Shown in pieces: positions 6,182 to 61,661 of a stretch of DNA of 64,000 nt. The translations under genes were made by a program, and so were the position numbers. The notes under the pieces were generated by a model. That model had not been told where the DNA came from and made no database searches. It saw only the letters and a program-made list of their open reading frames with translations. Within the stretch, counting starts at the first letter, position 1. The number at the start of each line of letters is the position of its first letter. Source of the DNA: Vicinamibacterales bacterium (GTDB lineage Bacteria; Acidobacteriota; Vicinamibacteria; Vicinamibacterales; UBA8438); assembly GCA_965199675.1 (NCBI GenBank), contig CBDATI010000063.1, positions 1,044 to 65,043 on the forward strand. The letters run 5' to 3'.

Positions 6182-7339
6182 CTATCGGCGCGCCACGGGT
6201 TCGAGGCGCACGACCTGACTCGGCTCGCCGCGGTGCTCGACCGCGAGGTAGATGTAGCCGTCCGGCCCCTGCCGGACGTCGCGCACTCGGCCGATCCCGT
6301 AGGCGAGCGTCTCTTCCAGCTCGATGCGTCCCGGCCGGTCGACGCTCGGCGTGAGGCGCGCGAGGCGGCGGCCGGCCATCCCGCCCACGAAGAAGCTGCC
6401 CTTCCAGTCCGGGAACCGGTCGCCGGTGTAGACCATCAGGCCGGACGTGGCGATCGAAGGGACCCAGAAGTGCACCGGCGACTCCATGTCCTCGCCGCGC
6501 GTCCCCGCGTGGATCGCCGTCCCGCTGCCGTAGTTCACGCCGTAGCCGACCACCGGCCACCCGTAGTTCAGACCGGGCCGTATCAGGTTGAGTTCATCGC
6601 CACCCTGTGGTCCGTGCTCGTGGGCCCACAGGTCGCCGGTCTCGGGGTGCACCAGCAGCCCCTGCGGGTTGCGGTGTCCGTAGCTCCAGATCTCGGGCAG
6701 GGTGTCGGGCTGGCCGACGAACGGGTTGTCTTCGGGCACGCGGCCGTCGTCGTAGAGGCGGACCGTGACGCCGTGATGGTTCGATGGATCCTGCGCGGGG
6801 TGGGTCGTCAGATCGCCGCGCGTGCGCGCCATCCGATCGCCCACCGAGACGAAGAGGTAGCCGTCGGGGTCCCAGGTCAACCGCCCCCCGTAGTGGCCGC
6901 CGCCCCGGGACTGGGCCTCGAAGACGTCCACGACGCCCGTGAGCCGATCGTCTTCGAACCGGCCCCTGATCACCGCCGTCGTCGAGCCCTCTCCCGTCGG
7001 CCGCGCGTAGCTCAGATACAGCAGACGGTTGGCCGCGAAGCCGGGGTGCGGGAGCACCTCGAACAGTCCGCCCTGCCCCCTCGCGACCACCTCGGGGACG
7101 CCCGGAACCGGATCCGGCAGCAGCGTTCCGTCGCGCACGATGCGGAGGCGCCCCGGGCGCTCGGTGACCAGCATGTCGCCGTCGGGCAGCCACGCGATGG
7201 ACCAGGGGACGTCGAGGCCGTCGACCACGGTCACGGCGCGATAGTCGTGATGGGCCGAGCGCCGCACGTCCTGGGCGGCGATCGGGTCTCCGGCGAGCAT
7301 GCATCCCAGGGTGGCGCAGACGGCGGCAGTGCGGATCAT
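6182..7339 (-). CDS. Secreted PQQ-dependent sugar dehydrogenase (soluble glucose/sorbosone dehydrogenase family)
   Basis: Start ATG 7339 (MIRTAAVCATLG) with AGGAG 7 nt upstream; the ORF-track 627-aa version is an upstream over-extension. Family motifs: PWSIAWLPDGDMLVTERPGRLRIV, YGHRNPQGL, GPQGGDELN, NYGWP. Confidence 0.85.
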   Translation of the reverse strand: MIRTAAVCATLGCMLAGDPIAAQDVRRSAHHDYRAVTVVDGLDVPWSIAWLPDGDMLVTERPGRLRIVRDGTLLPDPVPGVPEVVARGQGGLFEVLPHPGFAANRLLYLSYARPTGEGSTTAVIRGRFEDDRLTGVVDVFEAQSRGGGHYGGRLTWDPDGYLFVSVGDRMARTRGDLTTHPAQDPSNHHGVTVRLYDDGRVPEDNPFVGQPDTLPEIWSYGHRNPQGLLVHPETGDLWAHEHGPQGGDELNLIRPGLNYGWPVVGYGVNYGSGTAIHAGTRGEDMESPVHFWVPSIATSGLMVYTGDRFPDWKGSFFVGGMAGRRLARLTPSVDRPGRIELEETLAYGIGRVRDVRQGPDGYIYLAVEHRGEPSQVVRLEPVARR

Positions 7340-7502
7340 CGTCGACTCCTGTGACCGCGCGCCCGGCGCGCGGAGAGACACCATATCAATCATGACATGG
7401 ACCGTCCGTGGTGCGTGGAGGCGCGAGGAGGCGCGTGGTGCGGGTGGCGGGGAGTGAGGAGGACGTCGCACCATTCCGGCCACCGTTCGGGCAGGTGCCG
7501 GC

Positions 7503-24074: not shown

Positions 24075-25052
24075 TCAGCTTGGCTGCGCCCACCAGATGC
24101 CGACCGCCGCGACGGCGAGGGCGAGGGCAGCCGTCAGGTGGACGATGGCGCGCGCCCGCCGGTAGTCGACGGTCGTCCCCGCCGCGGGGTCGGCGGGGTC
24201 GCCCAGCCAGATCTCGTTGACCAGCCGGTCGTGCAGCCAGATGGGGCCGGCGAGGCGGCGCGTGATGGCGCCCGCCATGGCCGCCTCGCTCCAGCCGGGG
24301 TTGGGTCCGGGCACGACGGCGTGCTGCCGCCAGCCGGTGACGAGGGCCCCCCGGCCAGAACAGCCGGGCAGTGCGCCGGCGGCCAGCGCCATCAGCAGCC
24401 ACGTTGCGCGGGCCGGGGCCGCCTGCACCGCGTCGTCGAGGCGTGCGCCGCACCACCCGAACCGCAGGTAGCGGGGCGTGCGGTAGCCGACCATCGAGTC
24501 CATGGTGCTGACGACCTTGCACAGCACGAGGCCCGGCGCGCCCAGGACGGCGTACCACGCGATGGGAGAGACCACGCCGTCGACGAGGTTCTCGGCGAGG
24601 CTCTCGATGGCGGCCCGCCGGCAGTCGGCGGCGTCCATGCGGTCGACGTCGCGTCCCACCAGCCGCGCAATCGCCCGCCGCGCCCCCGGCAGGTCGCCCG
24701 CCCCGGCGGCGCGGTCGACGGCGGCGCCATGGGCGAGCAGGTCACCCGCGGCGAGCAGGCTGTAGAGCACGAACAGGTGCAGGGCTGTGCCGGCGGCCGG
24801 ATGCACCCGTCCCGCGCCGAGCAGGGCGAGAGAGAGGCCGCCCACCCACAGGGCGGCGAGCATCGCGAACAGCAGGCAGCCCCCGATCCGGCCGTCGCAC
24901 CCCGCGGCGCGCAGCATCCGCTCGGCGGCGGCGAGCGAGGCGCCCATCAGCCGCACGGGATGAGCGCGGTAGACCGGATCCCCGAGCACCCGGTCGAGGG
25001 CGGCGGCCGCCACGAGGAGCTCGGCCCGCGGCAGCAGCGGGCTCAGCTCCAC
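24075..25052 (-). CDS. cobD: Adenosylcobinamide-phosphate synthase CobD/CbiB
   Basis: GTG 25052 overlaps the cbiZ stop by 10 nt. Membrane protein with LGDPVYRAHPVRLMG, ESLAENLVDGVVSPIAWY, STMDSMVGYR, GPNPGWSEAAMAGA. Confidence 0.85.
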   Translation of the reverse strand: MELSPLLPRAELLVAAAALDRVLGDPVYRAHPVRLMGASLAAAERMLRAAGCDGRIGGCLLFAMLAALWVGGLSLALLGAGRVHPAAGTALHLFVLYSLLAAGDLLAHGAAVDRAAGAGDLPGARRAIARLVGRDVDRMDAADCRRAAIESLAENLVDGVVSPIAWYAVLGAPGLVLCKVVSTMDSMVGYRTPRYLRFGWCGARLDDAVQAAPARATWLLMALAAGALPGCSGRGALVTGWRQHAVVPGPNPGWSEAAMAGAITRRLAGPIWLHDRLVNEIWLGDPADPAAGTTVDYRRARAIVHLTAALALAVAAVGIWWAQPS

Positions 25053-26230
25053 TTGGCGCTCCAGCCGGCTGCGATGGCGTGCAGCACCAGCTCGACCGGA
25101 TCGTCGGGGGCCTGCGCGAGCCGCGCGAGGAACTCGGGCCAGTCGAGCGGGCGGGCGGCGAGCGCGCAGGCGAGGCACGCGGCCTGCTGCCGCAGCGCGC
25201 CGCCGACCGCGCCCTCGGGCAGCGTGCCGAACGCCGCGCGGTCGAGTACGGCGGCAAACGCGAAGGCGGCGGCGCCGACGCCGGGCTCGTAGAACGCCGC
25301 GTTCCGGTTGCGGTCGAGCAGCGCGAACTGCTTGGCGGGTAGCAGTTCGGCCAGCCGCGCGAGGGCGAGCGGCTCGGTCACCCCGAAGCGCCCGAGGGCA
25401 TGGAACAACCCGCGGGTCGAGGAAGGTTCGAGTCCGTTCTGCCAGCGCAGCGCCTCTTTCACCGCCTCGCGCACCGCCCCGCCGATGAGCTCCCCGAGCT
25501 TGGCGTGAGGACCGGTCGCGGCCCTCGGGATGCGGTCGGGGTCGAGGGGCGCGGCGACGCAGAACTGGTCGGTGCCGGTTCCGGTGGCGATGGTGGGCGA
25601 GTACCGGCTGGGCGCGGCGAGCTCGGCGAGCGCCGCCGACTTCGCCTCGGTCAACGTGACCGTCGCCCGCGCCTGAGCGGCGGGAGTGACGGGGCAGTCG
25701 AGCAGCACGATGAGGTTGATCGTCCCGTCGCTCGTGGCGCCCCGGTTGTCGACATCGTCGCGGGCATCTTCCCCGACCCATCGCCAGCGTCCGTCCTCGC
25801 CTTCCATCCAGTCTGCGGGGTCCCCGGCGCGGGCGGCGTTGCCGTGGACGCCGGCGGTGACGAACGCGTCGACGCGAATGTCCTCGAAGACGCCCGACCC
25901 GTGGGCGGTGCAGGCCATGTTGGCGGCGGTGCCCATGAGCGCCGTGCGGTCGGGCGGCACGCCGATTTCGGCGCAGACCGACGCGTGATAGGCCGCGGGT
26001 CCCAGCCCCGCGATGTGTTCGTAGCGGACGGCGTCGCCGGTCGCCTCGCAGCTCTGGTGGTTCACGACAAACGCCACGTCCTCGCGCTGACCGCCGCCCA
26101 CGGCGGAAGTGCTGATGACGCGGTGCGGCGTCAGGAGTTCGACCGGCATGAAACGCCCGTGGCGCCGGGCCACGAACCGGTCGCCGCGGTGCAGGACGTC
26201 GCCCGCCGACCGCCAGTCATCGGCGCTCAT
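25043..26230 (-). CDS. cbiZ: Adenosylcobinamide amidohydrolase CbiZ with an extra ~120-aa C-terminal extension
   Basis: Start ATG 26230 (MSADDWRS). CbiZ-type blocks: VISTSAVGGG, LMGTAANM, FVTAGVHGNAARAGD, DGTINLIVLLD, LTEAKSAALAEL, ATGTGTDQFCV. Confidence 0.8.
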   Translation of the reverse strand: MSADDWRSAGDVLHRGDRFVARRHGRFMPVELLTPHRVISTSAVGGGQREDVAFVVNHQSCEATGDAVRYEHIAGLGPAAYHASVCAEIGVPPDRTALMGTAANMACTAHGSGVFEDIRVDAFVTAGVHGNAARAGDPADWMEGEDGRWRWVGEDARDDVDNRGATSDGTINLIVLLDCPVTPAAQARATVTLTEAKSAALAELAAPSRYSPTIATGTGTDQFCVAAPLDPDRIPRAATGPHAKLGELIGGAVREAVKEALRWQNGLEPSSTRGLFHALGRFGVTEPLALARLAELLPAKQFALLDRNRNAAFYEPGVGAAAFAFAAVLDRAAFGTLPEGAVGGALRQQAACLACALAARPLDWPEFLARLAQAPDDPVELVLHAIAAGWSAKWS

Positions 26231-26344
26231 GCGCCCCCCGTGAGAGAGCCCCGAAGGGCAGGGTGGAAACGGGGCAGCCCGCGAGGGAGACGCCGCCGGT
26301 CGTCGTCGCGCCGCCCGGAGCGGCGGGCTGCGTGCTATACTGCG

Positions 26345-26645
26345 GGCCGACAGCTCTGCTCCGGGCGATTCCGGGAAGTGGGTGAGAATCCCACACGGTC
26401 CCGCCACTGTAAGCGGGGAGCGGGCGGCACGCAGGCGCCGATGGGCGCCGGTCACTGTGTTCGGTCGGGCGCTCGCGCCGCGGCAGTTCCGCGTCGGCGG
26501 AACCGCCCAGGCGACCGTCAGGTCGCAGGCGCAAGCGTCGCAGGCGTTTCGCACAAGCGAGACGTCCACCGCGCCCGCAAGGTCGCGCCGGCACGGGAAG
26601 GCTCTGCCGCCCCGCCACGATCCGCGAGTCAGGAGACCGATCGCC
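26345..26645 (+). promoter_or_regulatory. Cobalamin (B12) riboswitch with an unusually long internal insertion
   Basis: Core GGGAAGTGGGTGAGAATCCCACACGGTCCCGCCACTGTAAGCGGGGAGC (26373-26421). B12-box-like GCCGGTCACTG (26448-26458). GGGAAGGC (26595-26602). 3' AGTCAGGAGACC (26627-26638). TATACT -10-like hexamer at 26336-26341. Lies upstream of a B12 transport/adenosylation operon. Confidence 0.75.
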
Positions 26646-27011
26646 GGGAGGGTCACACAACCTCGCGGGCCGGCCTGCCGGTCTGCGAAGTTCGGCGCGT
26701 GGACACGCCGAAAGGAGGTTCCTGCCTGTCATGGCGCATCGCGCTGCTTGCGCGCCGCTCGTCACCCGGGTGACGTGTCGGCATGCCGCGAGCGGGTAAT
26801 CGGACATTTCCATCGATCGGCTTGGCGGCGTGCGTCGCACGGCCCCGCCCGCGCTTTCGCGTGCGCGGGCGTCCGCGCGGTTCGTACCAGCACCGCAATC
26901 AGAGGCGGCGGTGCGGCCGGCGCGGTGCACGTCCGGCGACGCTTCACATCATACGCGCACCGCCGGCAGCGCGCCGGGTCGAGGCGCGGAACGGCGGGGG
27001 AGACCATCGAC

Positions 27012-27587
27012 ATGAGCATCGTCACGAAGGGGGGCGACCGCGGCGAGACCGGGCTCGTCGGCGGGGTTCGGGTCTCGAAGGCATCGGCGCGGGTCGAGGC
27101 GTACGGAGCGGTCGACGAACTGAACAGCCAGATCGGGCTCGCCCGCGCCCTGTGCGGAGATGCCGTGGTGGGGAAGCTGCTCAAGGACATCCAGCGCGAG
27201 CTGTTCGCGGTCGGCGGCGAGTTGGCGACGCCGGCGCCCCGGCCCGGCCAGGCCCCCGCGGTCACCGCCGAGATGGTCGAGCGGCTGACGGCCGAGGTGC
27301 GGCGCATCGAGGCGATCGAGGGCGTGCTCGGCGACTGGACGATTCCCGGCGAGCACGCCGGGTCGGCCGCTCTCGACGTGGCGCGCGCGGTGTGCCGGCG
27401 GGCCGAGCGGCGGGCGGTGCAGCTCGCCGAATCGGGGGCGGAGGTCGGCGCCGACCTGCTGGCGTACCTCAACCGGCTCTCTGACCTGCTCTGGATTCTC
27501 GGCCGCCAGATCGAGGTCGAGGCGGGCGTGAACGCGGCCCTGCGGACGGCGGAGACGAGCGGCCCGAAATGGTCGCGCGCGTGGTGA
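27012..27587 (+). CDS. pduO: PduO-type ATP:cob(I)alamin adenosyltransferase
   Basis: MSIVTKGGDRGETGL..RVEAYGAVDELNSQIG..IQRELFAVGGELA..FTIPGE-like WTIPGEHAGSAALDVARAVCRRAER. 191 aa. Confidence 0.85.
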   Translation: MSIVTKGGDRGETGLVGGVRVSKASARVEAYGAVDELNSQIGLARALCGDAVVGKLLKDIQRELFAVGGELATPAPRPGQAPAVTAEMVERLTAEVRRIEAIEGVLGDWTIPGEHAGSAALDVARAVCRRAERRAVQLAESGAEVGADLLAYLNRLSDLLWILGRQIEVEAGVNAALRTAETSGPKWSRAW

Positions 27588-27591
27588 GCCG

Positions 27592-28587
27592 ATGAGCCCG
27601 CCCCTGCCTCGCCCGTCATGGGGACGCGTGCGGGCCCTGCTCGAGGTCGCCCTGTGCCTCGTGTTGCTGCTGACCGCCTGGCGCTGGACCGCCGACGCGG
27701 GGGACGGCTGGACGTTCGCGGGGCTGACGGCGGAGCGTGCGGCGTCGGGGTTCCCGCGCACGGTGCGCGACTACGCGGGAGACCCGCTCCGGCTGCCGGG
27801 GCCGCCGTCGCGCATCGCGTCGCAGGCCCTGGTGAGCGACCACTTCCTGTTCGCCGTCGTGCCGCCGTCGCGCATCGCCGCGGTCAGCGCCGTCGCCCAC
27901 GACCGGCGCTACAGCTTCGTCGCCGACGTGGTGGACGGGTTGGACGTCGCGGTGGCCGGCGAGCCCGAGGCCCTGCTGCGGCGCCGCCCCGACCTGTTGG
28001 TGGCTTCCAACACCGCCCGCGCCGACTACCTGTCGCTGGCGCGGGGCGCCGGCATCCCCACGTTCCGCCTGTTGACGGTGTTCGAAGACTTCTCGCAGAT
28101 CGCGGCCGGCCTGCAGACGGTGGGTCGGCTCACCGGCGAGGAACGGGCGGCCGATGGGGTGGTCCGGCGGTTCAGAGGCCGCATCGCGGCGGCGGTGGCG
28201 CGCCGTTCCACCGCGGGCCCGCCGCCCCGCGTGCTCGTCTACGTCGCCTTCTCGGGCACCTTCGGCACCGGTTCGCTCTTCGACCACATCCTGACCGAGC
28301 TGGGCGCCGTGAACCTGGCGGCCGAGCACGGTGTCGGCCCGCACGGCGCCATCGGCAACGAGCAGATCGCGGCCTGGAACCCGGACTGGATCATCGCCGA
28401 CGCACCCGCCGGCGACGAGGCCGCGGTGCGCCGGCGACTGCTCGACCATCCTGCGGTGGCGGTGACCGCGGCCGGGCGGACCGGGCAGGTGCTGGTCATC
28501 GACCACCGGCAGTTCATCACCATGTCGCAGTACGCAGCGGGTCTGACCGAGACGGTGGCCGCCGCGCTGTATCCGGACGCGCCGTGA
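27592..28587 (+). CDS. btuF: Periplasmic substrate-binding protein of a corrinoid/siderophore-type ABC importer
   Basis: Starts 4 nt after the pduO stop. N-terminal anchor, then a Peripla_BP_2-like layout (PSRIASQAL.., RRRPDLLVASN, NPDWIIADAP). Placed between the riboswitch and FecCD/ATPase genes. Confidence 0.75.
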   Translation: MSPPLPRPSWGRVRALLEVALCLVLLLTAWRWTADAGDGWTFAGLTAERAASGFPRTVRDYAGDPLRLPGPPSRIASQALVSDHFLFAVVPPSRIAAVSAVAHDRRYSFVADVVDGLDVAVAGEPEALLRRRPDLLVASNTARADYLSLARGAGIPTFRLLTVFEDFSQIAAGLQTVGRLTGEERAADGVVRRFRGRIAAAVARRSTAGPPPRVLVYVAFSGTFGTGSLFDHILTELGAVNLAAEHGVGPHGAIGNEQIAAWNPDWIIADAPAGDEAAVRRRLLDHPAVAVTAAGRTGQVLVIDHRQFITMSQYAAGLTETVAAALYPDAP

Positions 28588-29654
28588 CCGACACCGGAAG
28601 CCGACCGGGGGTTCGCGGGGCCGCCTGGGCAGCCCTGCCGCTGCTGGCGGCCCTGCTCGCGGCGGCGGTGGTGGCGGCGATCGCCGTCGGCAGCACCGGC
28701 ATCGCCTGGGTTACCGTCGTCCGGGTGCTCGCGTCGCGGGCGCTGCCGACCGGCTGGATCGATCTGGGGGAGATCTCCGAGGCCGAGCAGGTCATCGTCT
28801 GGCTCATCCGCACCCCGCGCGTGGTGGTCGCGGCGCTGGTGGGGGGTGCCCTCGCGGTGGCGGGGACGCAGATGCAGGGCCTCTTCCGCAACCCCCTGGC
28901 CGAGCCCAGCGTCATCGGCATCAGTCAGGGCGCGGCGCTGGGCGCCGTCGTCACGTTCGTCAGCGGGCTCGCGGCCGCGGCCGTCTTCTGGCTCCCGCTG
29001 TTCGCCTTCGCGGGCGCGCTGGCGGCGCTGGCCGCCGTCTACGCCGTCGCCACCCGCGCCGGGCGCACTCCGGTCGCGACGCTGCTGCTGGCCGGCATCG
29101 CCCTCGGGTCGTTGTCCACGGCCATCGCCACACTGCTGATATCGATGAGCGTCGTCAACTGGCAGGTCGCCAACGAGGTCGTCTTCTGGCTGATGGGCGG
29201 GCTCGACAACCGCACCTGGACCCACGTGTGGATGTGCCTGCCGCCGGTCGCCGCCGGGGTCGTGGCGGCGCGCTGGCACACGAGAGACCTCGACCTCCTG
29301 CTGCTCGGCGAGGAGACCGCGGCGAGTCTCGGCGTCGATGTCGAGCGGGTGCGCCGGACGATGCTGGCGACGGCGGCCATGCTCACCGGCGCCGCGGTAG
29401 CGGTGAGCGGGGTCATCGGCTTCGTCGGCCTGATCGTGCCGCACATGCTGCGGCTCGTCCTCGGACCGTCGCATCGCACCCTGCTGCCGGCCGCGATGCT
29501 CGGCGGCGCGCTGTTCGTGATCGTCTGCGACCTGCTGGCCCGCACCGTCCACCCGCCGACCGAGATCCGGCTCGGCATCATCACCGCGGCCTGCGGGGCG
29601 CCGTTCTTCCTCTACCTGCTGCGCCGGCAGCGGGGAGGGCTCGCCGCGTTATGA
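28584..29654 (+). CDS. btuC: FecCD-family ABC transporter permease (BtuC-like)
   Basis: GTG 28584 overlaps the btuF stop (GTGA). RTPRVVVAALVGGALAVAGTQMQGLFRNPLAEPSVIG, LLLGEETAASLGVDV, GVIGFVGLIVPHMLR, IGIITAACGAPFFLYLL. Confidence 0.85.
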   Translation: MTDTGSRPGVRGAAWAALPLLAALLAAAVVAAIAVGSTGIAWVTVVRVLASRALPTGWIDLGEISEAEQVIVWLIRTPRVVVAALVGGALAVAGTQMQGLFRNPLAEPSVIGISQGAALGAVVTFVSGLAAAAVFWLPLFAFAGALAALAAVYAVATRAGRTPVATLLLAGIALGSLSTAIATLLISMSVVNWQVANEVVFWLMGGLDNRTWTHVWMCLPPVAAGVVAARWHTRDLDLLLLGEETAASLGVDVERVRRTMLATAAMLTGAAVAVSGVIGFVGLIVPHMLRLVLGPSHRTLLPAAMLGGALFVIVCDLLARTVHPPTEIRLGIITAACGAPFFLYLLRRQRGGLAAL

Positions 29655-30436
29655 GCCTGCGGCTCGAGAAGGCCAGCCTCCGCATCGGGGGGCGGCGCCT
29701 CGTGCGCGACGTCACCATCGAGGCCGAGCCCGCCCGCATCACCGCCCTCATCGGCCCGAACGGGGCGGGGAAGTCGACGGTGCTGCGCCTCCTGGCCGGC
29801 CTCTGGACGCCGACCGGCGGCCGCGCCAGCCTCGACGGGACCGACCTGCCGCGGTTCTCGCGCCGGATCCTGGCGCGGCGCATCAGCTTCGTGCCGCAGG
29901 ACACGCACATGGACGTCCCGTTCACGGTGCGGGAACTGGTGACGATGGGGCGGCACCCCCACCTGGGCCGGTTCGACGACCCCGGACCCGCCGACGATGC
30001 GGCCGTCGCCGCCGCCATGTCGCGCGCCGACGTCGTGCATCTCGCCGACCGCCCGGCCACCGAGTTGTCGGGCGGCGAGCGCCGGCGCGCGGTCATCGCG
30101 CGCAGCCTCGCCACCGGCTCGAACGTGATCCTGCTCGACGAGCCGACCGCCAATCTCGATGTCGACCACGTCATCGAGACCCTGACCCTGTTGCGCGAGC
30201 TGGCCGCGGGCGGGGCCACCATCGCCCTCGCGCTGCACGATCTCAACGTGGTCTCGCGCTGGGCGGACACGATCGCGGTGCTGCAGGGCGGGCGCCTGCG
30301 GGCGACGGGTCCGCCGGCCGCGGTCCTCGACGACGACCTCGTGGCGTCGGTGTTCGGCGTGCGGGTCGAGCGGTTGACGTCCGGCGACGGCCGACCGGCG
30401 CTCGTCTTCCACCGCCGGCGGACCTCGACCGGTTGA
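29651..30436 (+). CDS. btuD: ABC transporter ATP-binding protein (BtuD/FecE-like)
   Basis: ATG 29651 overlaps the permease stop (ATGA). Walker A GPNGAGKST, signature LSGGERRR, Walker B ILLDEPTANLD. Confidence 0.9.
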   Translation: MSLRLEKASLRIGGRRLVRDVTIEAEPARITALIGPNGAGKSTVLRLLAGLWTPTGGRASLDGTDLPRFSRRILARRISFVPQDTHMDVPFTVRELVTMGRHPHLGRFDDPGPADDAAVAAAMSRADVVHLADRPATELSGGERRRAVIARSLATGSNVILLDEPTANLDVDHVIETLTLLRELAAGGATIALALHDLNVVSRWADTIAVLQGGRLRATGPPAAVLDDDLVASVFGVRVERLTSGDGRPALVFHRRRTSTG

Positions 30437-30621: not shown

Positions 30622-31401
30622 CTATCGCGGCAGTCGAAAGCTGATACCGGCGCCGAAGAACAGGTCGTCGGCAGGATCCCGCAGTCGGCGGCCGACGGAG
30701 ACGTCCAACTGGAGCACATCGGTCAGCAGAAGGGTCAGGCCCGTATCCGCCGACACGCCGCTCGCCACCGGGCTCGTGACCTGACTGTCGCCGAAGACCT
30801 CGATGAACGCCCCCAGGCGGTCGGTCAGCCCGATGCCGAGAGCAAGGGAGTACACGACGAACGCGTCGCGGCCCGGCTCGTCGGGCGCCGACTCCCACGC
30901 CGCCCCCGCGTTGTAGCCCAGGGCCAGTCTCGGTGCGAGCTCGTGGGCGAAGGCGACGAGGAACGACGGGTCGGCGCCGCCGCTCGAGAACCCGTGGTCG
31001 CCCGTCGGGAGCGACAGGCCGCCCAGGATCGCGAGCTCGGGTCGCCAACCGTCCGCCTGCGGAACGAGATTGACCTTGGCGCCGAGCGCGCTGTCACCCG
31101 CGCCGCGGCGACCCTCCGCCCCGACGACGCCGGCGTGACCGAGACGGAGCTCTGTGCGCCCGCCGAGGCCGATGCGGAAGAGCGTGCCGGGCGCGGCGTG
31201 GCTGTCGACGTGCCCCTCACGAGTGAACAGGTAGCCCGTCTCGACCTGCAGCAGGCCCCGCCGCACGACGGTGGCTGACTCGGTCTGATCCGGACGGTCG
31301 GTCACCAGTTCGGGCGACTGCGCGCTCGCGTCGAAGGCGAACGCCAGCACCGCCGCCCCGAGGAGCACGACCCGAGCCGCACCGACAGCAATCTCGCGCA
31401 A
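30622..31401 (-). CDS. Outer-membrane beta-barrel channel (putative MetA-pathway / transporter family)
   Basis: Candidate TTG start at 31401 gives MREIAVGAARVVLLGAAVLAFAFDASAQ. VTDRPDQTESATVV..LQVETGY..LFRIGLGGRTELRLG. Ends ..FFGAGISFRLPR. No ATG is available in frame, so the start is uncertain. Confidence 0.7.
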   Translation of the reverse strand: MREIAVGAARVVLLGAAVLAFAFDASAQSPELVTDRPDQTESATVVRRGLLQVETGYLFTREGHVDSHAAPGTLFRIGLGGRTELRLGHAGVVGAEGRRGAGDSALGAKVNLVPQADGWRPELAILGGLSLPTGDHGFSSGGADPSFLVAFAHELAPRLALGYNAGAAWESAPDEPGRDAFVVYSLALGIGLTDRLGAFIEVFGDSQVTSPVASGVSADTGLTLLLTDVLQLDVSVGRRLRDPADDLFFGAGISFRLPR

Positions 31402-31442
31402 CCGCCGCCTCGAGACCGGGTTCGGGTGACCGCGGGGTACCT

Positions 31443-32498
31443 CTACCGGTTTCCGCCCGCCTCCGCGGCGCGCGAGCCGGCGAGGATGTTCGTCATCCCG
31501 TAGTTGCCTTCGTGGCAGGCGTACTCGTACAGGGGCTGGTCGCCGCGGGCCCACGGGGAGGAGCCGGTCCACGGGGTGGTCCAGACGTTGGGATCGTGCA
31601 CCGTGAACTCGTAGTCGAGGATCCCCGGGCCCACGCGGGTGAACCGCTCCACCACCCGCAGGGCGGGGCTGAGGTCCCAGTTGGTGCCGCCCTGCGGTCC
31701 GGGGCCGGACGAGAAGAGATAGGCACGATCGCCGAAGCCGGCCGTCTCCACGACGAGCGTGTCACCGTCCCAGCGCCCCAGCGAGTGTCCGCCGAACTGG
31801 CTGATGCGCCCGTCGATCCGCGGGCGCCCGTCTAGGTGAATGAAGCGTACGTCGTGGATGTGCTCCTGCACGATGGCGATGACGTCGGGCGTCTGCACGA
31901 TCTGGTAGTTGTTGTTGTAGGCGGTCGGCAGCGACGGGACGCCCCGGTACCAGATGCAGCGGTCGCCGTAGTCGAACTGGGCGTAGGAGTCGGCCGGCGC
32001 CAGCCCCTCGCGCACGTCCTTCAGGTGCTGCCGGCCCGGCGAGTTGACGTAGGCCTCTGCCTCGGGCGTGAGGGCCGGCAGGCGTCCGTTCGGCGGGTCG
32101 ACCACCAGCGACGTGCGCCGCGTGGGGACGACGGTCGTGCCGCGATCGATCCAGAAGGCGTTGTAGGCGCCGACGTTGCCGCCGACCGGCAGGGGCTCGG
32201 TGCGCACCTCGCTGGGTGCGTTCGCGCGGGCGTTGGCCTCGACGACGCGCGCCTCGATGGCCGCCGCCTCCTCCTCGGTCAGGAACGCCTGGTCGCCCAG
32301 CGCCTCCGGCCGCTCGAGCGGCGTCACCGTCGAGCTGTTCCAGACGCCCCCGATGTCGGGGTCGCCCCAAGGGGTGCGCGGTGCGGACCAGCCTTCCGGC
32401 GATGCCGGCTGGGACCACCCCGCCGCCGGCGTCAGGGCGACGCCCGTCGCCAGCGCCAGCGCACCGACTCGGGCCCGGACACGAGAAAGACGATTCAT
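31443..32498 (-). CDS. Secreted protein of unknown function, DRC / YNNN / W(E/D)GDTLV / EYACHEG family, paralog 2 of 4
   Basis: 351-aa ORF with GGAG 7 nt upstream of the ATG. Signal peptide. Motifs PRTPWGDPDIGGVW, TPLERP, RTSLVVDPPNGRLPALT, GDRC, YNNNYQIVQTPDV, GRWDGDTLVVET, ERFTRV, YEYACHEGNYG. Confidence 0.8.
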   Translation of the reverse strand: MNRLSRVRARVGALALATGVALTPAAGWSQPASPEGWSAPRTPWGDPDIGGVWNSSTVTPLERPEALGDQAFLTEEEAAAIEARVVEANARANAPSEVRTEPLPVGGNVGAYNAFWIDRGTTVVPTRRTSLVVDPPNGRLPALTPEAEAYVNSPGRQHLKDVREGLAPADSYAQFDYGDRCIWYRGVPSLPTAYNNNYQIVQTPDVIAIVQEHIHDVRFIHLDGRPRIDGRISQFGGHSLGRWDGDTLVVETAGFGDRAYLFSSGPGPQGGTNWDLSPALRVVERFTRVGPGILDYEFTVHDPNVWTTPWTGSSPWARGDQPLYEYACHEGNYGMTNILAGSRAAEAGGNR

Positions 32499-32506
32499 GG
32501 TTTGCT

Positions 32507-32541
32507 CCAGTGGCCAGTGGTCAATGGTCGGTGGTCAGTGA
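32507..32541. repeat. Five tandem heptamers in the intergenic spacer between paralogs 3 and 2
   Basis: CCAGTGG CCAGTGG TCAATGG TCGGTGG TCAGTGA, read directly from the + strand, immediately upstream (in the transcription sense) of the RBS of 31443-32498. Confidence 0.8.
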
Positions 32542-32560
32542 TCCGACCACCGGCGTCTCC

Positions 32561-33562
32561 TCACGGGCGCAGCTCGCGTCCCAGGCGTTCGAGGTTCCGC
32601 GCCCCGGCGAGGATGCCGTAGAGCCCGATGTTGCCCTCGTGGCAGGCGTACTCGAAGATCTCGCCGTCGGTGCGCCGGAACGGCAGCATGACCGTGTAGG
32701 GCGCGGTGTACCTCTCGGGGTCGGTCACGGTGTACTCGTAGGCGACGGTGTCCGGATCGAGCCGGGTCAGCCGCTCGACGAGCTGCAGGCTCGGGCCGAT
32801 CGTCCCGTTGCCCCAGTCGCGGTATTGCGCAGTTTCGACGACCAGCGTCTCTCCCTCCCAGCGCCCCCGCGACACGCCCGCGATCTGTTCGAGCCGCGGC
32901 CTCTCCACATCGTCGAGGGGGATGATGCGGTGCTGGCGCGCCTGCTCGGTGAGGATCACCACGTGGTCGGCGGTCTGGAAGATCATCAGGTTGTTGTTGT
33001 ACGCCCCGGGGCGCATGGGCGGGCCCGACTTGGTGAACGCGATGCAGCGGTCGCCCATGCTCCGGTTCTCGTACGAGTCGTACATGTGCTCGCGGCGGTA
33101 CGCCCTGCGCTCGGCGTCCGCCTTCCGGGCCGCATCGGTCAGCGGGGGGTAGCGCCCGTTGGGCGGATCGACGATGAGTGACGTCCGCTTGTCCGACGTC
33201 AGCTCGATGCCCCGCTCGTACCAGAACTCGTTGTAGGAAAGCACGCCGCCCGCCGCGCGCGGCGCGTAGCCGGCGTTGGGCGCCCCGGCGATGGGGTCGA
33301 ACAGGTCCCGGTTCTGGCGGGTCCGCTCCGACGCCTCGAACGCCGCCGCGGTCTCCGGGTCCAGGGTCTCCCGGTCCGCGAACCGGGCCGGCCGCTGCAT
33401 CGGGGTCAGGGTGCGGAAGGTGAAGACGCCGGAGAGGTGCGGGTGCCCGTCGGGGGTCCGCATCGGCATGCCGCCGCCGTCCGGCTGGGCGAGGGCCGGC
33501 GAGGCCGCGAACGCGAGCACGAGCGCGGGGACCGCGAACGCCGCCGAGCTTGACTTGCGCAT
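32561..33562 (-). CDS. Secreted protein of unknown function, DRC / YNNN / WEGETLV / EYACHEG family, paralog 3 of 4
   Basis: 333-aa ORF with GGAGGGAG before the ATG. Signal peptide MRKSSSAAFAVPALVLAFAASPALAQ. Motifs RTSLIVDPPNGRYPPLT, GDRC, YNNNLMIFQTADHV, RGRWEGETLVVET, ERLTRLD, FEYACHEGNIG. Confidence 0.8.
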   Translation of the reverse strand: MRKSSSAAFAVPALVLAFAASPALAQPDGGGMPMRTPDGHPHLSGVFTFRTLTPMQRPARFADRETLDPETAAAFEASERTRQNRDLFDPIAGAPNAGYAPRAAGGVLSYNEFWYERGIELTSDKRTSLIVDPPNGRYPPLTDAARKADAERRAYRREHMYDSYENRSMGDRCIAFTKSGPPMRPGAYNNNLMIFQTADHVVILTEQARQHRIIPLDDVERPRLEQIAGVSRGRWEGETLVVETAQYRDWGNGTIGPSLQLVERLTRLDPDTVAYEYTVTDPERYTAPYTVMLPFRRTDGEIFEYACHEGNIGLYGILAGARNLERLGRELRP

Positions 33563-33607
33563 CTGCTCCCTCCGGTTCGAGAGGCGTGGTTGGACGGACT
33601 GCCGCCG

Positions 33608-33613
33608 ATTATA
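33608..33613 (-). promoter_or_regulatory. Possible -10 hexamer (TATAAT on the minus strand) for the paralog3-paralog2-OM channel operon
   Basis: The + strand reads ATTATA, so the minus strand reads TATAAT, about 46 nt upstream of ATG 33562. An AT hexamer stands out in a GC-rich context. No convincing -35. Confidence 0.3.
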
Positions 33614-33894
33614 CTCGGCCCGGACTCGCCGTCGGCCGGTCCGGGCCGGTCCGGGTGGAATCGGGAGGCTTCGGGCAGGAGCCGGATCTGCACTCCAGCC
33701 GCGAACGCAGCTCGGTGAAGCGGAACGAGTTCGTCTCGACAGGGGATCTTGACGTCCCGGAGGAGCCGCTCACGGTGGCCCGCGATCAGCTCCGGCGGAG
33801 GAACGATCCTGTGCCCGCGGCCGGGAGGCGGACGGTTTGCGTGACACGGCCTCGATCGGGGGATAATCGGCAGCCCCGGGGCCACGACGACGCC

Positions 33895-34020
33895 CCGGCG
33901 GGCTGGGCCAGCCGGCTTGCGCAGAACGAGAAGACAGGCCCGGCGATGAGATCGGGGTGAGCGACGGCGCGGTGGTCCGGCGGGCTGGACCGGACGGCTT
34001 GCGCAGTACGAGGAGGACAG
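33895..34020 (+). repeat. Duplicated 44-nt 5' leader of paralog 4 (copies at 33895-33938 and 33977-34020)
   Basis: CCGGCGGGCTGGGCCAGCCGGCTTGCGCAGAACGAGAAGACAGG versus CCGGCGGGCTGGACCGGACGGCTTGCGCAGTACGAGGAGGACAGA (about 38 of 44 identical). Only copy 2 keeps the GAGGAGG Shine-Dalgarno. Copy 1 is followed by ATG AGA TCG GGG TGA. Confidence 0.75.
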
Positions 34021-34021
34021 A

Positions 34022-35020
34022 ATGAGTCATCGAATGACCGCGGTGTCGGTCGCGGCGTGTCTGGCCGCCGTCGCCGCCGGGGGCGCGGCGCCGGCCGAGG
34101 CCCAGAGCGGACCACCGCGGACGGCCTGGGGCGCCCCTGACCTGGGCGGCGTGTGGGACTTCCGCAGCATCACCCCGATGCAGCGGCCGGAAGCGCTCGC
34201 CGACCAGGAGTTCCTGAGCGAGGAGGCGGCGGCCGAACTGGAGCAGCGGGCCCTCGACCGCCTCAACGACTTCCTGGACCTGCCCGCGCAGCGGACCGAG
34301 GCGGGGACCAACGTCGACCGGCGCCCCGACGGCGGGAACGGCTCGTACAACCACACCTGGCTCGACCAGGGCCTGCAGACGGTGGGGACCCGGCGCACGT
34401 CGCTCATCATCGACCCCCCGGACGGGCGCTACCCCGCGATGACCCCCGACGGGCGGGAGCGCACCGCCGCCCGCGCCGCGCACCGGCGCACGCAGCCGGC
34501 CGACTCGTGGCTGGACTTCAGCACCTACGACCGCTGCATCCTCGGGTTCAACGCGGGTCCCCCGATGAACCCGAGCGCCTACAACAACAACATGCAGGTG
34601 TTCCAGACGTCCGACCACGTCGCCCTGATGACCGAGATGGTGCACACGGTGCGCATCGTGCCCCTCGACGGGCGCCCCGCCCTCGATCCCTCGTTCCGGC
34701 AGTGGTCGGGCGACTCGCGCGGCCGCTGGGAGGGCGACACCCTCGTCATCGAGACCGCCAACTTCGACCCCCGCCGGCAGTGGCGCAGCACCAGCGGCAG
34801 CATGCGGCTGACCGAGCGGCTGACCCGCGTCGACGCCGAGACGCTGCTCTACCAGGCTACCGTGGACGATCCCGAGACATGGGAACGGCCGTGGACCTAC
34901 GAAGTGCCGATGCGGCGGCTCGACGAGGACATGTGGGAGTACGCGTGCCACGAGGGTCACCATTCGATGCCCCTGATGCTCGGCGGCGCCCGCGTGCTGG
35001 AGGCGGCGGGGCAGCAGTAG
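34022..35020 (+). CDS. Secreted protein of unknown function, DRC / YNNN / WEGDTLV / EYACHEG family, paralog 4 of 4
   Basis: 332-aa ORF with GAGGAGG before the ATG. Signal peptide ..VAACLAAVAAGGAAPAEAQ. Motifs PRTAWGAPDLGGVW, RTSLIIDPPDGRYPAMT, YDRC, YNNNMQVFQTSDHV, RGRWEGDTLVIET, ERLTRVD, WEYACHEGHH. Confidence 0.8.
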   Translation: MSHRMTAVSVAACLAAVAAGGAAPAEAQSGPPRTAWGAPDLGGVWDFRSITPMQRPEALADQEFLSEEAAAELEQRALDRLNDFLDLPAQRTEAGTNVDRRPDGGNGSYNHTWLDQGLQTVGTRRTSLIIDPPDGRYPAMTPDGRERTAARAAHRRTQPADSWLDFSTYDRCILGFNAGPPMNPSAYNNNMQVFQTSDHVALMTEMVHTVRIVPLDGRPALDPSFRQWSGDSRGRWEGDTLVIETANFDPRRQWRSTSGSMRLTERLTRVDAETLLYQATVDDPETWERPWTYEVPMRRLDEDMWEYACHEGHHSMPLMLGGARVLEAAGQQ

Positions 35021-35041: not shown

Positions 35042-35255
35042 TCACGACAGGCGGGCGAGCACGGCGTCGCCACTGTCGCACTCGATGATCAGGTCGCCGA
35101 TCCGGGTGAGGCGGTGGGGATCGTCGATTGCGGCCAGGGCCTCGGCCAGCCGCGCGGCGGTGCGCGGATCGAACTTCCGGGCGGCCAGACGACCGAGGAC
35201 CGCGCGCTCGCGAGCGAGGGCCGTCCGGCGATCGCCTTCCGGCGGATCGTCGTAC
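35042..35255 (-). pseudogene. C-terminal remnant of a DUF4351 / Rpn(YhgA)-like PD-(D/E)XK transposase-family protein
   Basis: ..EGDRRTALARERAVLGRLAARKFDPRTAARLAEALAAIDDPHRLTRIGDLIIECDSGDAVLARLS-stop has the layout of DUF4351 C-termini. There is no start codon and no N-terminal domain. The rest of ORF 35042..35722 is antisense to the next gene. Confidence 0.5.
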
Positions 35256-35278
35256 CGCCCCGGCGGAAGGGGCCCTCG

Positions 35279-38200
35279 ATGAGGAAGACGCGTCGCGTTC
35301 CCCGGACCGCCGTCCTTGTCGCCAGCCTGGGGCTGGCTGCGTTCGCGATGGTGCGCGCCCAGCCGATGCGCGACGCCGGCTTCCGCGAGGCGGTTGCCGG
35401 CCGTCTCGCGCCGGCGGGCCTGCCGGCGGGGCGGGGGGCGGTCGGAGGGCGCGCGGTGGACGGAGACGTGGGCCATCCGACGTTCATGAGTCCGCACGCC
35501 GCGCCCATCGCGGTGAGCGGCGGCCGCGTCTTCGTCGCCAACACCCCCGCCGACACCGTCGATGTCATCGACGCGGCGACCCTCGCCGTCGTCGCGCGGG
35601 TCACTGTGGGCATCGACCCCGTGGGCATCGCGGTTCGGCCCGACGGGCGGGAGGTGTGGGTCGCGAACCACGTCTCCGATTCGGTCAGCGTGATCGACAG
35701 CGACCCTGCGAGTCCCACCCACCTGCAGGTGGTCGGCACCGTGCAGAGCCTCGGCTTCGTGAGCCGGGCGACCGAGTTCGACGAGCCGGTGGGCGTCGCC
35801 TTCGCCAGCGACGCCAAGGCCTACGTGACCCTGTCGTCAGAGAACCGGGTCGCGGCGATCGACGTGGCGACCCGGGAGGTGGCCGGGTTCCTGCCCATCA
35901 GCGCGCAGGACCCGCGCGCCCTCGCCGTGCGCGGCGACCGGCTCTACGTCGTTCCCTTCGAGTCCAACAACCAGACGCAGATCTCCGGCTGCCGGGGCGA
36001 GATCGACGGCGACCTCTGCACCTTCGACGCGCAGGTGCACGTGGTCGACAACAACAACGTGCTGTCGCTGGGCATCGACGTGGACATCGTCCGTCACCCC
36101 GGCGTTCCCGACCGCGACCTGTTCGTCTTCGACACCGCGACCGACGAGCTCGTCGAGGTCGTCGACACCGTGGGCACCCTGCTCTACGGGCTCGCCGTCG
36201 ACTCGGCGGGGCGCGTCTTCATCGCGCAGGCGGAAGCGCGCAACGACGCCAACGGGCGGGCGGGCACCTTGAAGCACGGCCTCGCGGAGATGGAGAACCG
36301 CGCGTTCCTGAACCGGATCACGCGCGTCGACTGCAGCGGAGGAGCGTGCGGCGAACCGGAGTTCATCGAGCTCGAGCCGCTGCCGCCGGCGCATCCCGCT
36401 CCCGGCGCGGCCCTCGCCACCCCGTTCGCGATCGAGGTGAGCGGCGACGACTCGATCCTGGTGGCTTCCGCCGCGGGGTCGGACACGGTCTTCACCGTCG
36501 ACGCCGCCAGTGGGGCGGTGTTGGGGCGCGCAGCGGTCGGCGCGGTCCCGCGCGGGATAGCTCTCGAGTCGGACGGCGACGGCCGGCCGTGGCGGGCCTG
36601 GGTCCTCAACGCGGTCGCCAACACCGTGTCTCTCGTCGACGTCAGCGATCCCGCCGCCCCCCGCGCCACCGCCACCGTTACCCTCGAAGACCCCACCGAT
36701 CCCGCCGTCAAGCGCGGGCGCATCGCCTTCAACAACGCCGGCGCTTCCTCCACCGGCACCTTCTCGTGCGAGAGCTGTCACCCCGACGGCCACACCGATC
36801 AACTCGTCTGGGTGCTCGACACGCCGATCTGCGATCGGCGCGGGTGCACGCAGATTCCGCCCCGGTCGACGATGCCGGTCCGTGGCCTTCGCGATACCGC
36901 GCCCTATCACTGGGACGGCATCCCCGGCGACCCCTACGGCGGCAACAACACCGCCAACATCCGGGGCAGCGCGCCGCCCAACTGCCGCGTCGGCGACGAG
37001 GCGAGCTGCGTCCGCGATCTCGTCGACCGCACCCTCGCCTCGACCATGTGCCTGGTGGGCGACTGCCCCGTCAACGACGAGGGCAAGCCCGGCGCGCTCT
37101 CCGGGGCCGAGCGCGACGACCTCGCGACGTTCCTGCTGAGCGTGCCCTATCCGCCGTCGCAGCGGCGCGCCTACGACAACGTCCTGTCGCAACAGGCGGT
37201 GCTGGGGTTCGAGGCGTTCCACATCGACGGAGTTCCCGACGGCGACGACGGCCGCATGAATGTCTGCGGCGACTGCCACCGCATGCCGTTCTGGGTCAGC
37301 ACGAACACGCCGGGCACCGGCATGGACGCGCCCACGTGGCGCGGCGCCTACGACCGCTGGCTCATCCTGCCGCAGGGCCGGTGGAACGTCATCGACCTCC
37401 GCGGCCGCTTCGACCGCGACAACGGGTTTCCCGAACGGAGCATGTGGGGCGCCACCATCCCCGCGCGGCGCACCTTCTGGAACATGGTGACCGAGGGCAG
37501 CACCGGCTTCTCGGGGTCCTTCGCCCGGCAGATCACCCTCGACGCCGCCTCCGCCGGCCGCGCGCAGACCGACGACCTGCTCGACGCGCTGGAGCTGTCG
37601 GCGGCCGAAGGCGGCATCGTGCTCCGGGGCGAAGGCGTGCTCATCGACGAGGCGTCGTCGCCCCCCCGGGCGACGCCCGTGGCCTTGCAGTTCGACGACG
37701 GCGTCTACCGGGAGCGGGACGCGGAGACCGGGGGGGCGCCGTCGTTCAGCCGGCCGGAGCTGACGACGCTCGCCGCCGCCGGCCGCTTCGTGGGGACGTT
37801 CACGGGGCGTCTGGGTCCCGACGTGGGCGTCGACCACCCGCAGCCGGCCATCTGGAGCGTGGGGCCGATCCACGAGCAGCGCGGGCCGCAGGTGTTCCCC
37901 ACCATGTCCGGCACCGACGGCGCCATCGTCGTCAGCGGTCGGCACGTGCGGGAAGGCGCTCACGTCATCGTCGACGGCCGACGGACACCCGGCCGCGTGC
38001 GCTGCGAGAGCGGCGCGCTGCCCGACTGCGCGGGCGAGCGGCTCGTCGTCGAGCTCGTGGCGGGGCCGGGCATGCACTTCCTGCAGTTGCAGAACCCCGG
38101 CGGCCAATTCAGCAACGATTTCATCTTCTTTGGCCGCTCCGGCGGCCGACGCCCGCCGATCGTGCGTCCCGCCGGGGAGGCGCCGCTCCCCGCCGCTGCG

Positions 38201-39324
38201 TCCGATGCCGTCCGGCGTGCGAGCCCGGGCCGGCGGGCCGACGTCCCGGTCGCCGCTCCCCCCGCCGCCGGCCCCCCGCCGCCATCGGGCGAGGTCTTCA
38301 CCGCGGCCGACGGTACCGCCTTCCGGGCGGAGACGGTGATGGTCGGTCTGGACGCGCCGACGAGCCTCGACTTCGCGCCGGACGGGCGGCTGTTCGTGGC
38401 CGAACGGCGCGGGCGGGTCTGGGTGTTGGCGCCGGGACGGACCCGGCCGCAGGCGGCTCTTGCGGCGGTCGTCCCGGTGGTGGGGGAGCGGCCACGTCTG
38501 CTCGATCTGGCGCTCGACCCGGGTTCCCGGGCAACGGCTTCGTCTACCTGCTCCGAGCCGGCGGCGGGCCGGGCGAGAGGGCGGCTGGGCGCCTCGTGCG
38601 GTATCGTGCGGCGGGCAACATCCTGGCCGAGGCGGCGGTTCTGCTGGACGATCTGCCGGTTCCCGGCGTTGCGCCGGCGGGTCGGCTCCGCTTCGGCCCC
38701 GACGGCCTGCTCTATGCCGCGCTGGGCGCGAGCGACGCGGACGAGGCTCGGGATCTCGCCTCCTACGCCGGCAAGATGCTGCGCGTCCGCCCCGACGGCG
38801 CGGCGCCGGGGGCCAACCCGTTCGCGTCGCCGGTGTACTCGCTCGGCCATCGCCATCCGGGAGGATTCGACTGGCATCCGCTGACGGGGGTGCTCTGGGG
38901 GGCCGAGCCGGGCGGGACCGGGCCCGACGAGATCAACCGCATCGAAGCCGGGGTCGACTACGGTGGCTCGCCCGCGGAGGGCCTTCGCCCGCTGCCCGGG
39001 ATGCGCGGGCCGGTGCTGAGCCTCTCACCGTCCGTCACGCCCGCTGGCGCGTCCTTCTATACCGGGACCGCCATCGCGGGGTTCCGGAACGACCTGTTCG
39101 TGGCCGCCCTCGACGGCGCCCACCTCCTCCGGATCCGGTTCGATCCCGCCGACCCGGATCGGATCGTCGCGGCCGAGCGGTTGCTCGACGGCCGGTTCGG
39201 CCGGTTGCGCGACGTCGTGACGGGCCCGGACGGGAGCCTGTACGTCGCGACCAGCAATCGCGACGGCCAGGGGACGCCCGCCACCGGCGACGACCGCATC
39301 ATCCGGTTGACGGCGGTGCGTTGA
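35279..39324 (+). CDS. Roughly 1350-aa secreted fusion: YVTN-type beta-propeller + di-heme cytochrome c (peroxidase/MauG-like) + C-terminal PQQ sugar-dehydrogenase-like propeller; one frame disruption at ~38522
   Basis: ATG 35279 (MRKTRRVPRTAVLVASLGLAAFA). Propeller repeats (VFVANTPADTVDVIDAATLAVV..VWVANHVSDSVSVID). Heme motifs FSCESCHPDGHTDQLVW and VCGDCH. GSDH-like tail begins in frame 2 (LDFAPDGRLFVAERRGRVWVL..LLDLALDP) and continues in frame 1 from 38524 (FPGNGFVYL..YSLGHRHPGGFDWHP..DEINRIEAGVDYG..GPDGSLYVATSN..) to the stop at 39324. Confidence 0.75.
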
Positions 39325-61312: not shown

Positions 61313-61661
61313 TCGCCGCGGCCGGCCGCCGGCGCCGGGGTCGCGGCCCGGCCGATGGCCTCCTCCGGAGGACTGGGGTGCGCGGGCGTTTCGGATGGAG
61401 TCGCCGGGCACGGGGCGTTCACGGGCTGGCACGGAAAAGGTGGCGCAATTCATGAGGTTTACAAGTATACTGGCGACCCCCGTCCGGCGGGCCATGGCGC
61501 CCCCGGTTCGTACGGGGCGGCCGGGGACTCGTTGGGAGCGGCCCGGTTGGAGTTGCGGTTCCGTCGTGCGCGTCGCGGGCCCGACGTGGCCCCGGTGGCA
61601 CGAAGGCAGGTGGTAGCCGGTGCGGGTCGGCGCAGAGCGCCGGGTTCAAGGAGGCATGTCG

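Follow-up and report, generated by a model that had tools for sequence, protein, structure and literature searches.

Four paralogs on a Vicinamibacterales contig belong to a very large, unnamed family of exported bacterial proteins with a predicted calycin-like core

What is the role of a protein family that is represented by four genes within 64 kb of one bacterial contig, and that has no name? This question is raised by a stretch of 64,000 nucleotides from a Vicinamibacterales bacterium (assembly GCA_965199675.1, contig CBDATI010000063.1, positions 1,044 to 65,043), hereafter called the window, in which a first-pass annotation made from the sequence alone had noticed four genes for related secreted proteins. 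All four open reading frames (ORFs) are present where that annotation placed them, on the strands it gave, and encode proteins of 332 to 353 amino acids. Two lie on the minus strand as the first and second genes of a three-gene unit, namely 32561-33562 (333 amino acids; ORF translation, alignment and orthologs) and 31443-32498 (351 amino acids; ORF translation and alignment). The third, 34022-35020 on the plus strand, is divergent from this unit and encodes a protein of 332 amino acids that matches the family hidden Markov model (HMM) with an E-value of 2.9e-170. The fourth, 3778-4839 (plus strand, 353 amino acids), lies 27 kb from the other three copies and adjoins an aminotransferase gene (4849-6051) and a GSDH gene (6182-7354, minus strand).

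The relationship among the four proteins is unambiguous. They align from end to end with a mean column identity of 61% and are 44-48% identical to the first sequence in a MAFFT alignment, and pairwise BLASTP comparisons give 39-52% identity with E-values of 9e-65 to 5e-115, far beyond chance. Every motif that had been listed for them is present (PRT-WG-PD(L/I)-GVW, RTSLxVDPPxGRxP, DRC, YNNN, RW(E/D)G(D/E)TLVxET, ER(F/L)TR and E(Y/F)ACHEG), with the N-terminal WGxPDL block degenerate in the 32561-33562 copy. The window has a G+C content of 72%, and third-position G+C in the four ORFs is 0.89-0.96, as expected for real genes of this genome. Each protein starts with a positively charged, hydrophobic leader of the n-h-c type that ends in AxA, in agreement with the signal peptides originally proposed; in the 32561-33562 protein the leader ends in ALA, followed by QP. 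Signal-peptide features recur in 115 of 125 diverse relatives, and a lipobox is found in few. The 34022-35020 protein is the most consensus-like of the four; residue numbers given here are those of this protein, and the confident structure model was made for it.

The exported bacterial protein family to which these four genes belong has no name and is very large. When 1.84 billion representatives of 50%-identity clusters were searched exhaustively with HMMER, 24,495 proteins scored at E<=1e-3, of which 12,324 passed E<=1e-10 and 2,305 passed E<=1e-30. Word-indexed searches gave at least 8,000 90%-identity clusters at E<=0.001 in a first run (8,000 of 8,000 candidates scored) and at least 5,357 matches at E<=1e-10 in a second (8,000 candidates scored). 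In neither word-indexed search did any of the 120 matches listed carry a precomputed Pfam domain, and the descriptive names from NCBI and JGI among the matches listed all read ‘hypothetical protein’. The family was found in one-genome-per-species data in Vicinamibacterales, which include the closest relatives of the window proteins, in Bryobacterales/Solibacteraceae and other Acidobacteriota, and in marine Gammaproteobacteria (e.g. Pseudohongiella, Porticoccaceae and ‘Multivorans’). Among the loci listed, the genomes COS4_bin_27 and OZ252227.1 carry at least 6-7 copies each.

The first-pass annotation had recognised no named domain and had proposed profile-HMM and structure-based searches; both were run, and no characterised domain emerged. 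Scans of the four proteins against Pfam-A (2025 copy) and NCBIfam r20 gave no meaningful match at E<=1, and 125 diverse members scanned singly at E<=10 showed no recurrent Pfam family. Sequence searches of the PDB with two profiles found no relative, and matches to cytochrome b562 at E ~0.2 were dismissed as noise. Exact-sequence look-ups of the 333-residue window protein and of P0002 returned no record, and a literature search for the family motifs returned irrelevant matches only. A 2026 preprint on lanthanide pyrroloquinoline quinone (PQQ) enzymes, from the literature on PQQ and Vicinamibacterales, describes a different periplasmic protein of ~120 amino acids.

The presence of four copies in 64 kb had been taken as a sign of recent expansion, but this view does not survive a comparison with orthologs. 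The best ortholog identities of the four paralogs are 93, 89, 89 and 84-85% (up to 93% for 31443-32498 and up to 89% for 32561-33562 in other assemblies), whereas identity among the paralogs themselves is no more than 39-52%, and thus the expansion is old. The 84% ortholog of 3778-4839, at locus L087, has a different neighbourhood, beside ABC genes of the MacB/FtsX type. The paralogs diverged anciently, and the genomic contexts of the family are fluid.

A conserved core within these proteins was delineated by using the 125 members that are the closest relatives of the window proteins (E<1e-81). Eleven residues are invariant in this set (R55, G135, P138, R171, C172, E205, G230, E265, E306, C309 and E311), and H310, N313, R211, Q195, W236, Y277, T280, D283 and R324 are at least 90% conserved. 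The model and the invariant columns place the core at residues ~165-315 of the reference protein (34514-34966, plus strand), running from R171-C172 through eight strands (190-300) to E306-x-A-C309-H310-E311-G-N313. A divergent short subfamily of ~270 amino acids (e.g. L040, L044, L047, L059 and L064) lacks the first ~130 residues and retains (K/R)C, Q195, E205, R211, GxWxG, E265-R266, Y277, T280, D283, E306, C309 and E311. Since only the barrel and its flanking cysteine segments are kept in these proteins, they define the conserved module, and the N-terminal region can be regarded as an accessory. In the short members tested, the barrel core has no Pfam match, and one member carries a C-terminal DUF3471 domain only.

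The two cysteines of DRC and ACHEG had been described as invariant in the four paralogs and as a possible disulfide or metal site. Their invariance extends to the 125 members and to the short subfamily. Of the 125 members, 110 have exactly two cysteines in the mature chain and the other 15 have four; odd counts do not occur. Even cysteine counts in exported proteins are a signature of disulfide bonding, and the family has the expected combination of a signal peptide and an even number of conserved cysteines. In the structure model, the first position immediately precedes strand 1 and the second immediately follows strand 8, and because a closed up-and-down barrel pairs these two strands, the flanking cysteines could plausibly be near each other. 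Most likely, therefore, given both the cysteine parity and the predicted topology, DRC and ACHEG form a disulfide staple. Of the two options originally offered, the metal site fares poorly, as the histidine next to the second cysteine is replaced by valine or alanine in the short subfamily while both cysteines are kept.

An AlphaFold (AF2) model of the 34022-35020 protein, built with 125 diverse representatives, reached a mean predicted local distance difference test (pLDDT) score of 87.7 and a predicted TM-score of 0.85, and supersedes an earlier model from 40 close sequences (pLDDT 60.6). The N-terminal region (residues ~30-190) is well predicted and would be largely coil with two helices. 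It is followed by eight predicted strands in a row (190-195, 199-204, 210-214, 231-237, 240-246, 262-271, 274-282 and 291-300), with pLDDT values above 90, and by a long helix at 311-331. The core is thus predicted to be an eight-stranded up-and-down, calycin-like beta-barrel with a C-terminal helix.

When the model was compared with the PDB by Foldseek, only the ~120-residue barrel was matched, and the best and only significant matches were fatty-acid-binding proteins (FABP), retinol-binding proteins (CRBP) and SAHS proteins of tardigrades, with E-values of 3.4e-4 to 3e-3 and TM-scores of 0.45-0.54 when scaled to the target but at most 0.25 when scaled to the query. There is no whole-chain structural analogue in the PDB by this measure, and hhalign gives a probability of 0.4% for a relationship between the family profile and the Lipocalin_5 domain. 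With the barrel alone matched, and weakly, and with no profile relationship, the core is best described as calycin-like in shape only. The conserved G-R-W-E-G falls on predicted strand four, whereas the G-x-W motif of lipocalins lies on the first.

The model nevertheless shares several features with FABP, CRBP, CRABP, SAHS proteins and lipocalins, which likewise have an antiparallel up-and-down barrel of ~120 residues followed by a helix, and the conserved arginine, tyrosine and glutamate residues of the family would be on barrel strands, as in calycins. There are also differences. The predicted barrel has eight main strands rather than the ten of FABPs, and it is preceded by a region of ~160 residues that, judging from the model, has no precedent in the PDB. 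Moreover, unlike calycins, the family is exported, carries an invariant cysteine pair and many invariant acidic residues, and is massively paralogous in bacteria, and neither Pfam lipocalin scans nor hhalign detect any similarity in sequence or profile. The four paralogs therefore stand outside any curated family, with a weak calycin resemblance that is confined to the fold. What appears to be new, if the model is correct, is the combination, in a barrel protein for small molecules, of a distinctive N-terminal region, a probable disulfide and a polar site.

The genomic context of the family was examined in 80 loci of +/-6 kb at distinct genome locations, by using our own ORF calling, HMMs and clustering. 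At least two family copies are present in 30 of the 80 loci, and one marine gammaproteobacterial contig holds three copies in 17 kb. Of 113 family genes, 56 have no same-strand neighbour within 80 nucleotides. The commonest tightly spaced partner is another family gene (13 pairs), followed by DUF6152, which is coupled downstream in four cases and upstream in one, usually in the order short member, long member, DUF6152. The neighbour encountered most often is a PQQ dehydrogenase (PF01011), in 29 of the 80 loci. Other recurrent neighbours are NHL and SMP-30/gluconolactonase (SGL) propellers, metallo-beta-lactamase-fold proteins, DUF1592/DUF1552 pairs, Cu2-monooxygenase-like proteins, amidases, tannase, cyclase and GSDH, with an NHL-type propeller directly adjacent in at least five genome loci. 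The window is similar, and encodes GSDH, sulfatase, amidase, PQQ dehydrogenase, catalase-peroxidase, molybdenum hydroxylase, a TonB-dependent receptor and an NHL protein.

The channel is a different matter. The third gene of the unit in the window, 30622-31401 (minus strand, 259 amino acids), encodes a COG4313/Phenol_MetA_deg outer-membrane channel that matches PF13557 over positions 1-242 of 242 (E 7.4e-22; 79 bits, cutoff 22). It starts with a TTG codon at 31401, with GAGG upstream, 41 nucleotides past the stop codon of 31443-32498, and a gap of 62 nucleotides separates the two paralogs. Because the three minus-strand genes are co-directional and closely spaced, they make up an operon-like unit. 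The COG4313 family comprises 12-stranded channels with an N-terminal segment inserted in the barrel lumen, which occur in catabolic operons and have been implicated in taking up hydrophobic compounds, among them sphingosine and chlorophenols (PMC4493636). The window protein shares a full-length PF13557 match with the COG4313 members Pput2725, SphA and TcpY; the known partners of such channels are catabolic enzymes, whereas here they are two unannotated family members in one narrow Vicinamibacterales lineage.

The first-pass annotation went further and tied the family as a whole to this channel, which holds for the window and its near relatives only. An HMM built for the channel detects it near a family gene in one of the 80 loci, L001, which carries an 80% ortholog of 32561-33562, and not in the other 79. 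Loci L081 and L082, found via 92% and 84% orthologs of 31443-32498, keep the order 333-residue member, 352-residue member, Phenol_MetA_deg, with stop and start coordinates coinciding within the unit of L082; the ortholog of 32561-33562 holds the same position in L081, L082 and L001, all three of which keep the whole unit of two family genes and a channel gene. At L002, where the ortholog is 68% identical, the second paralog and the channel are both missing, and PF13557 is outside the 25 commonest Pfam families among 148 mid-size neighbours. The association is a real operon, but it is lineage-specific, kept only in loci whose orthologs share at least 80% identity, and so comes close to being peculiar to one genome, with recurrence in just three loci of other assemblies and no conserved co-location across lineages in the 80 loci. 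A PadR-family regulator lies directly upstream of the unit in L082 (6430-6774), and in close relatives such regulators (L082 6430-6774; L087 6325-6663) adjoin family genes or permeases of the ADOP/MacB type. None is evident in the window intergenic region 33563-34021, around which no riboswitch, promoter or terminator was found either.

What, then, might these proteins do? We tentatively propose, with a probability of about 0.4, that they act as cofactor-free acid/base enzymes, or at least as tight binders, within the periplasmic repertoire for degrading organic compounds. The protein would be exported by the Sec route to the periplasm or beyond, and would consist of a signal peptide, an optional N-terminal region of ~135 residues and the conserved core of ~150 residues. 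A C172-C309 disulfide would close the barrel, which may hold a small organic molecule, and the invariant polar residues (R171, Q195, E205, R211, E265/R266, Y277, D283, E306, E311 and N313, with H310 in long forms) would form one ligand site next to this disulfide. In keeping with a single site, the polar invariants mostly persist in the barrel-only subfamily. Because the genes need no conserved partner, each paralog may act alone, perhaps as a hydratase, isomerase, lyase or hydrolase. Only in the lineage of the window would the COG4313 channel admit a substrate, probably hydrophobic, for the two co-transcribed paralogs.

A catabolic role is supported by the secreted catabolic neighbours and by fusions of the family domain to a DUF3089 alpha/beta-hydrolase and to Lipocalin_5. 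Lipocalin-type prostaglandin D synthase, allene oxide cyclase and violaxanthin de-epoxidase are calycin-fold enzymes, and provide precedents for a small barrel that converts hydrophobic substrates by acid/base or thiol catalysis without a cofactor. These enzymes are not among the Foldseek matches listed, and their catalytic residues are not comparable with those of the family; our best guess is a periplasmic protein that either converts or binds a small molecule. With slightly greater reserve, we suggest as one joint claim that the family may be an unrecognised class of periplasmic cofactor-free enzymes or ligand carriers with its own N-terminal region, in which a disulfide-stapled calycin-like barrel bears an invariant Glu/Arg/Gln/Tyr site and paralogs are tuned to different small organic substrates.

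A number of observations weigh against this proposal. There is no characterised homolog in Pfam, NCBIfam or PDB sequence searches, the structural similarity to calycins is weak even for the best match and finds no echo in the Lipocalin_5 profile comparison, and calycin barrels are mostly binders rather than enzymes. The use of close relatives for the conservation set inflates the apparent invariance, and the loss of His310 in the short subfamily means that it is not a universal catalytic residue. The neighbour counts come from 80 loci without a genome-wide background, and the most frequent neighbour shows no preference for adjacency: PQQ genes account for 15 of 174 (8.6%) at rank 1, 9 of 139 (6.5%) at rank 2 and 7 of 83 (8.4%) at rank 4, and tight coupling to a PQQ gene is seen for just 3 of the 113 family genes. 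PQQ dehydrogenase was accordingly rejected as a specific operon partner, being regionally common, not enriched next to the family and rarely tightly coupled. Its proximity to the family is regional co-location and not a dedicated pairing.

Some of the same evidence could be read differently. The proteins may be non-catalytic periplasmic carriers that shuttle a hydrophobic or amphipathic molecule from the channel to an enzyme, sensor or inner-membrane transporter, a reading close to that of the first-pass annotation and one that we regard as only somewhat less likely than our own proposal. An FABP/CRBP-like barrel is, after all, the only structural resemblance found, and the operon with a channel for hydrophobic molecules (window, L001, L081 and L082) and the fusion to a second lipocalin-like domain would both suit a carrier. 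FABPs bind the carboxylate of their ligands via an Arg-Arg-Tyr clamp, and the conserved Arg, Tyr and Glu residues could, by analogy, clamp a head group. However, the family has no conserved partner that is a transporter, a channel or a sensor (the single channel among the 80 loci is that of the ortholog), and half of the family genes stand alone. In addition, many charges are invariant across paralogs whose ligands presumably differ, which suits catalysis better. The nearest parallel to such a carrier is offered by expanded orphan families of periplasmic binding proteins, such as the Bug/TctC type, which also occur as many exported paralogs per genome, mostly not next to a transporter. The family may be analogous to them in this respect, but its fold is unrelated, its members have no Pfam match to substrate-binding proteins, and it has no known cognate membrane component.

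The prevalence of PQQ dehydrogenases, several of which occur in the marine gammaproteobacterial locus L083, and the GSDH-type PQQ enzymes that flank two of the family copies in the window, bring to mind a metal or redox protein, in which the Cys-His of ACHEG and the cysteine of DRC would bind a metal or heme, and which would serve neighbouring PQQ-dependent dehydrogenases as an electron acceptor or cofactor chaperone. The invariant cysteines and the near-invariant histidine beside one of them would fit such a role. It is nonetheless improbable, because the four paralogs have no CxxCH heme-attachment motif (only YACHEG, with the second cysteine ~137 residues away) and their alignment shows no cupredoxin ligand pattern, while the strict count of two or four cysteines favours disulfides. 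The replacement of His310 in the short subfamily and the scarcity of tight coupling to PQQ genes argue in the same direction.

Least probable of all, and by a wide measure implausible, is a corrinoid link, in which the unit of two paralogs and channel would cooperate with the B12 salvage and uptake cluster that abuts it convergently in the window and also in L081 and L082. In the window, a cobalamin riboswitch (RF00174, 34.1 bits; 26349-26659, plus strand) precedes an operon that reaches 30436 and comprises a Cob adenosyltransferase (inside ORF 26382-27587), a BtuF-like binding protein (27592-28587), an FecCD permease (28587-29654) and an ABC ATPase (29651-30436), with CbiZ (25043-26656) encoded divergently. 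The convergent orientation itself speaks against cooperation, as does the riboswitch, which is found in front of the btu-like operon alone; Rfam gives no match upstream of the family operon, and B12 genes are not among the recurrent neighbours in the 80 loci. The 12-stranded COG4313 barrel would also be too narrow for cobalamin, judging from the description of these channels (PMC4493636).

The main interest of the family lies in its size and its complete lack of annotation rather than in a surprising mechanism. Assignment of a ligand or reaction would annotate tens of thousands of genes at once, and would add a step to models of how the oligotrophs that carry the family handle complex organic matter outside the cytoplasm. 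The family features prominently in soil Acidobacteriota that are abundant yet poorly represented in culture (Vicinamibacterales and Bryobacterales) and in marine Gammaproteobacteria, and its genes lie near those for periplasmic dehydrogenases, lactonases, amidases and esterases. If it does represent a new class of enzymes or carriers, it would rank among the larger portions of functional ‘dark matter’ in the secretomes of these soil bacteria and of oligotrophic Gammaproteobacteria from the sea. The operon of two paralogs and a COG4313 gene is a convenient entry point, as it pairs the family with a class of channels that has been associated with hydrophobic substrates.

Several further features of these loci were noted. 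The arrangement of a short member (~270 amino acids), a long member and a small DUF6152 protein is a recurrent unit in L031, L038, L044, L047 and L064, as exemplified by L044 (5350-7443 and the gene downstream). In the DUF6152 representative of L031 (2604-3044), His-His follows directly after the hydrophobic leader, such that the mature N-terminus would begin with His-His. This unit may be a heteromeric or metal-related subsystem. Family genes lie in islands dense in periplasmic enzymes in marine Gammaproteobacteria, at L084-L086 (cupredoxin-like protein, tannase, NHL/SGL propeller, DUF6282, cyclase, amidase and GSDH) and at L083, which holds three PQQ dehydrogenases within 10 kb, and also in the window (6182-7354, 11062-12969 and 61620-62939).

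Three metagenomic relatives appear to be true domain fusions, with no internal signal peptide. P0217 joins a DUF3089 alpha/beta-hydrolase to the family domain, P0172 joins the family domain to a C-terminal Lipocalin_5 domain, and P0138 joins a CxxCH-containing region of prenyltransferase/squalene-cyclase repeats to the family domain. Finally, a very large gene (35114-39324, plus strand) is located just downstream of 34022-35020 in the window, and encodes a YNCE-type beta-propeller, two CxxCH motifs (SCESCH and CGDCH) and a GSDH-type PQQ sugar dehydrogenase domain. A frameshift near 38600 breaks this gene, and GSDH profile positions 98-329 are matched in another frame at 38602-39324 (E 2.5e-49), which would reflect either an assembly error or a pseudogene.

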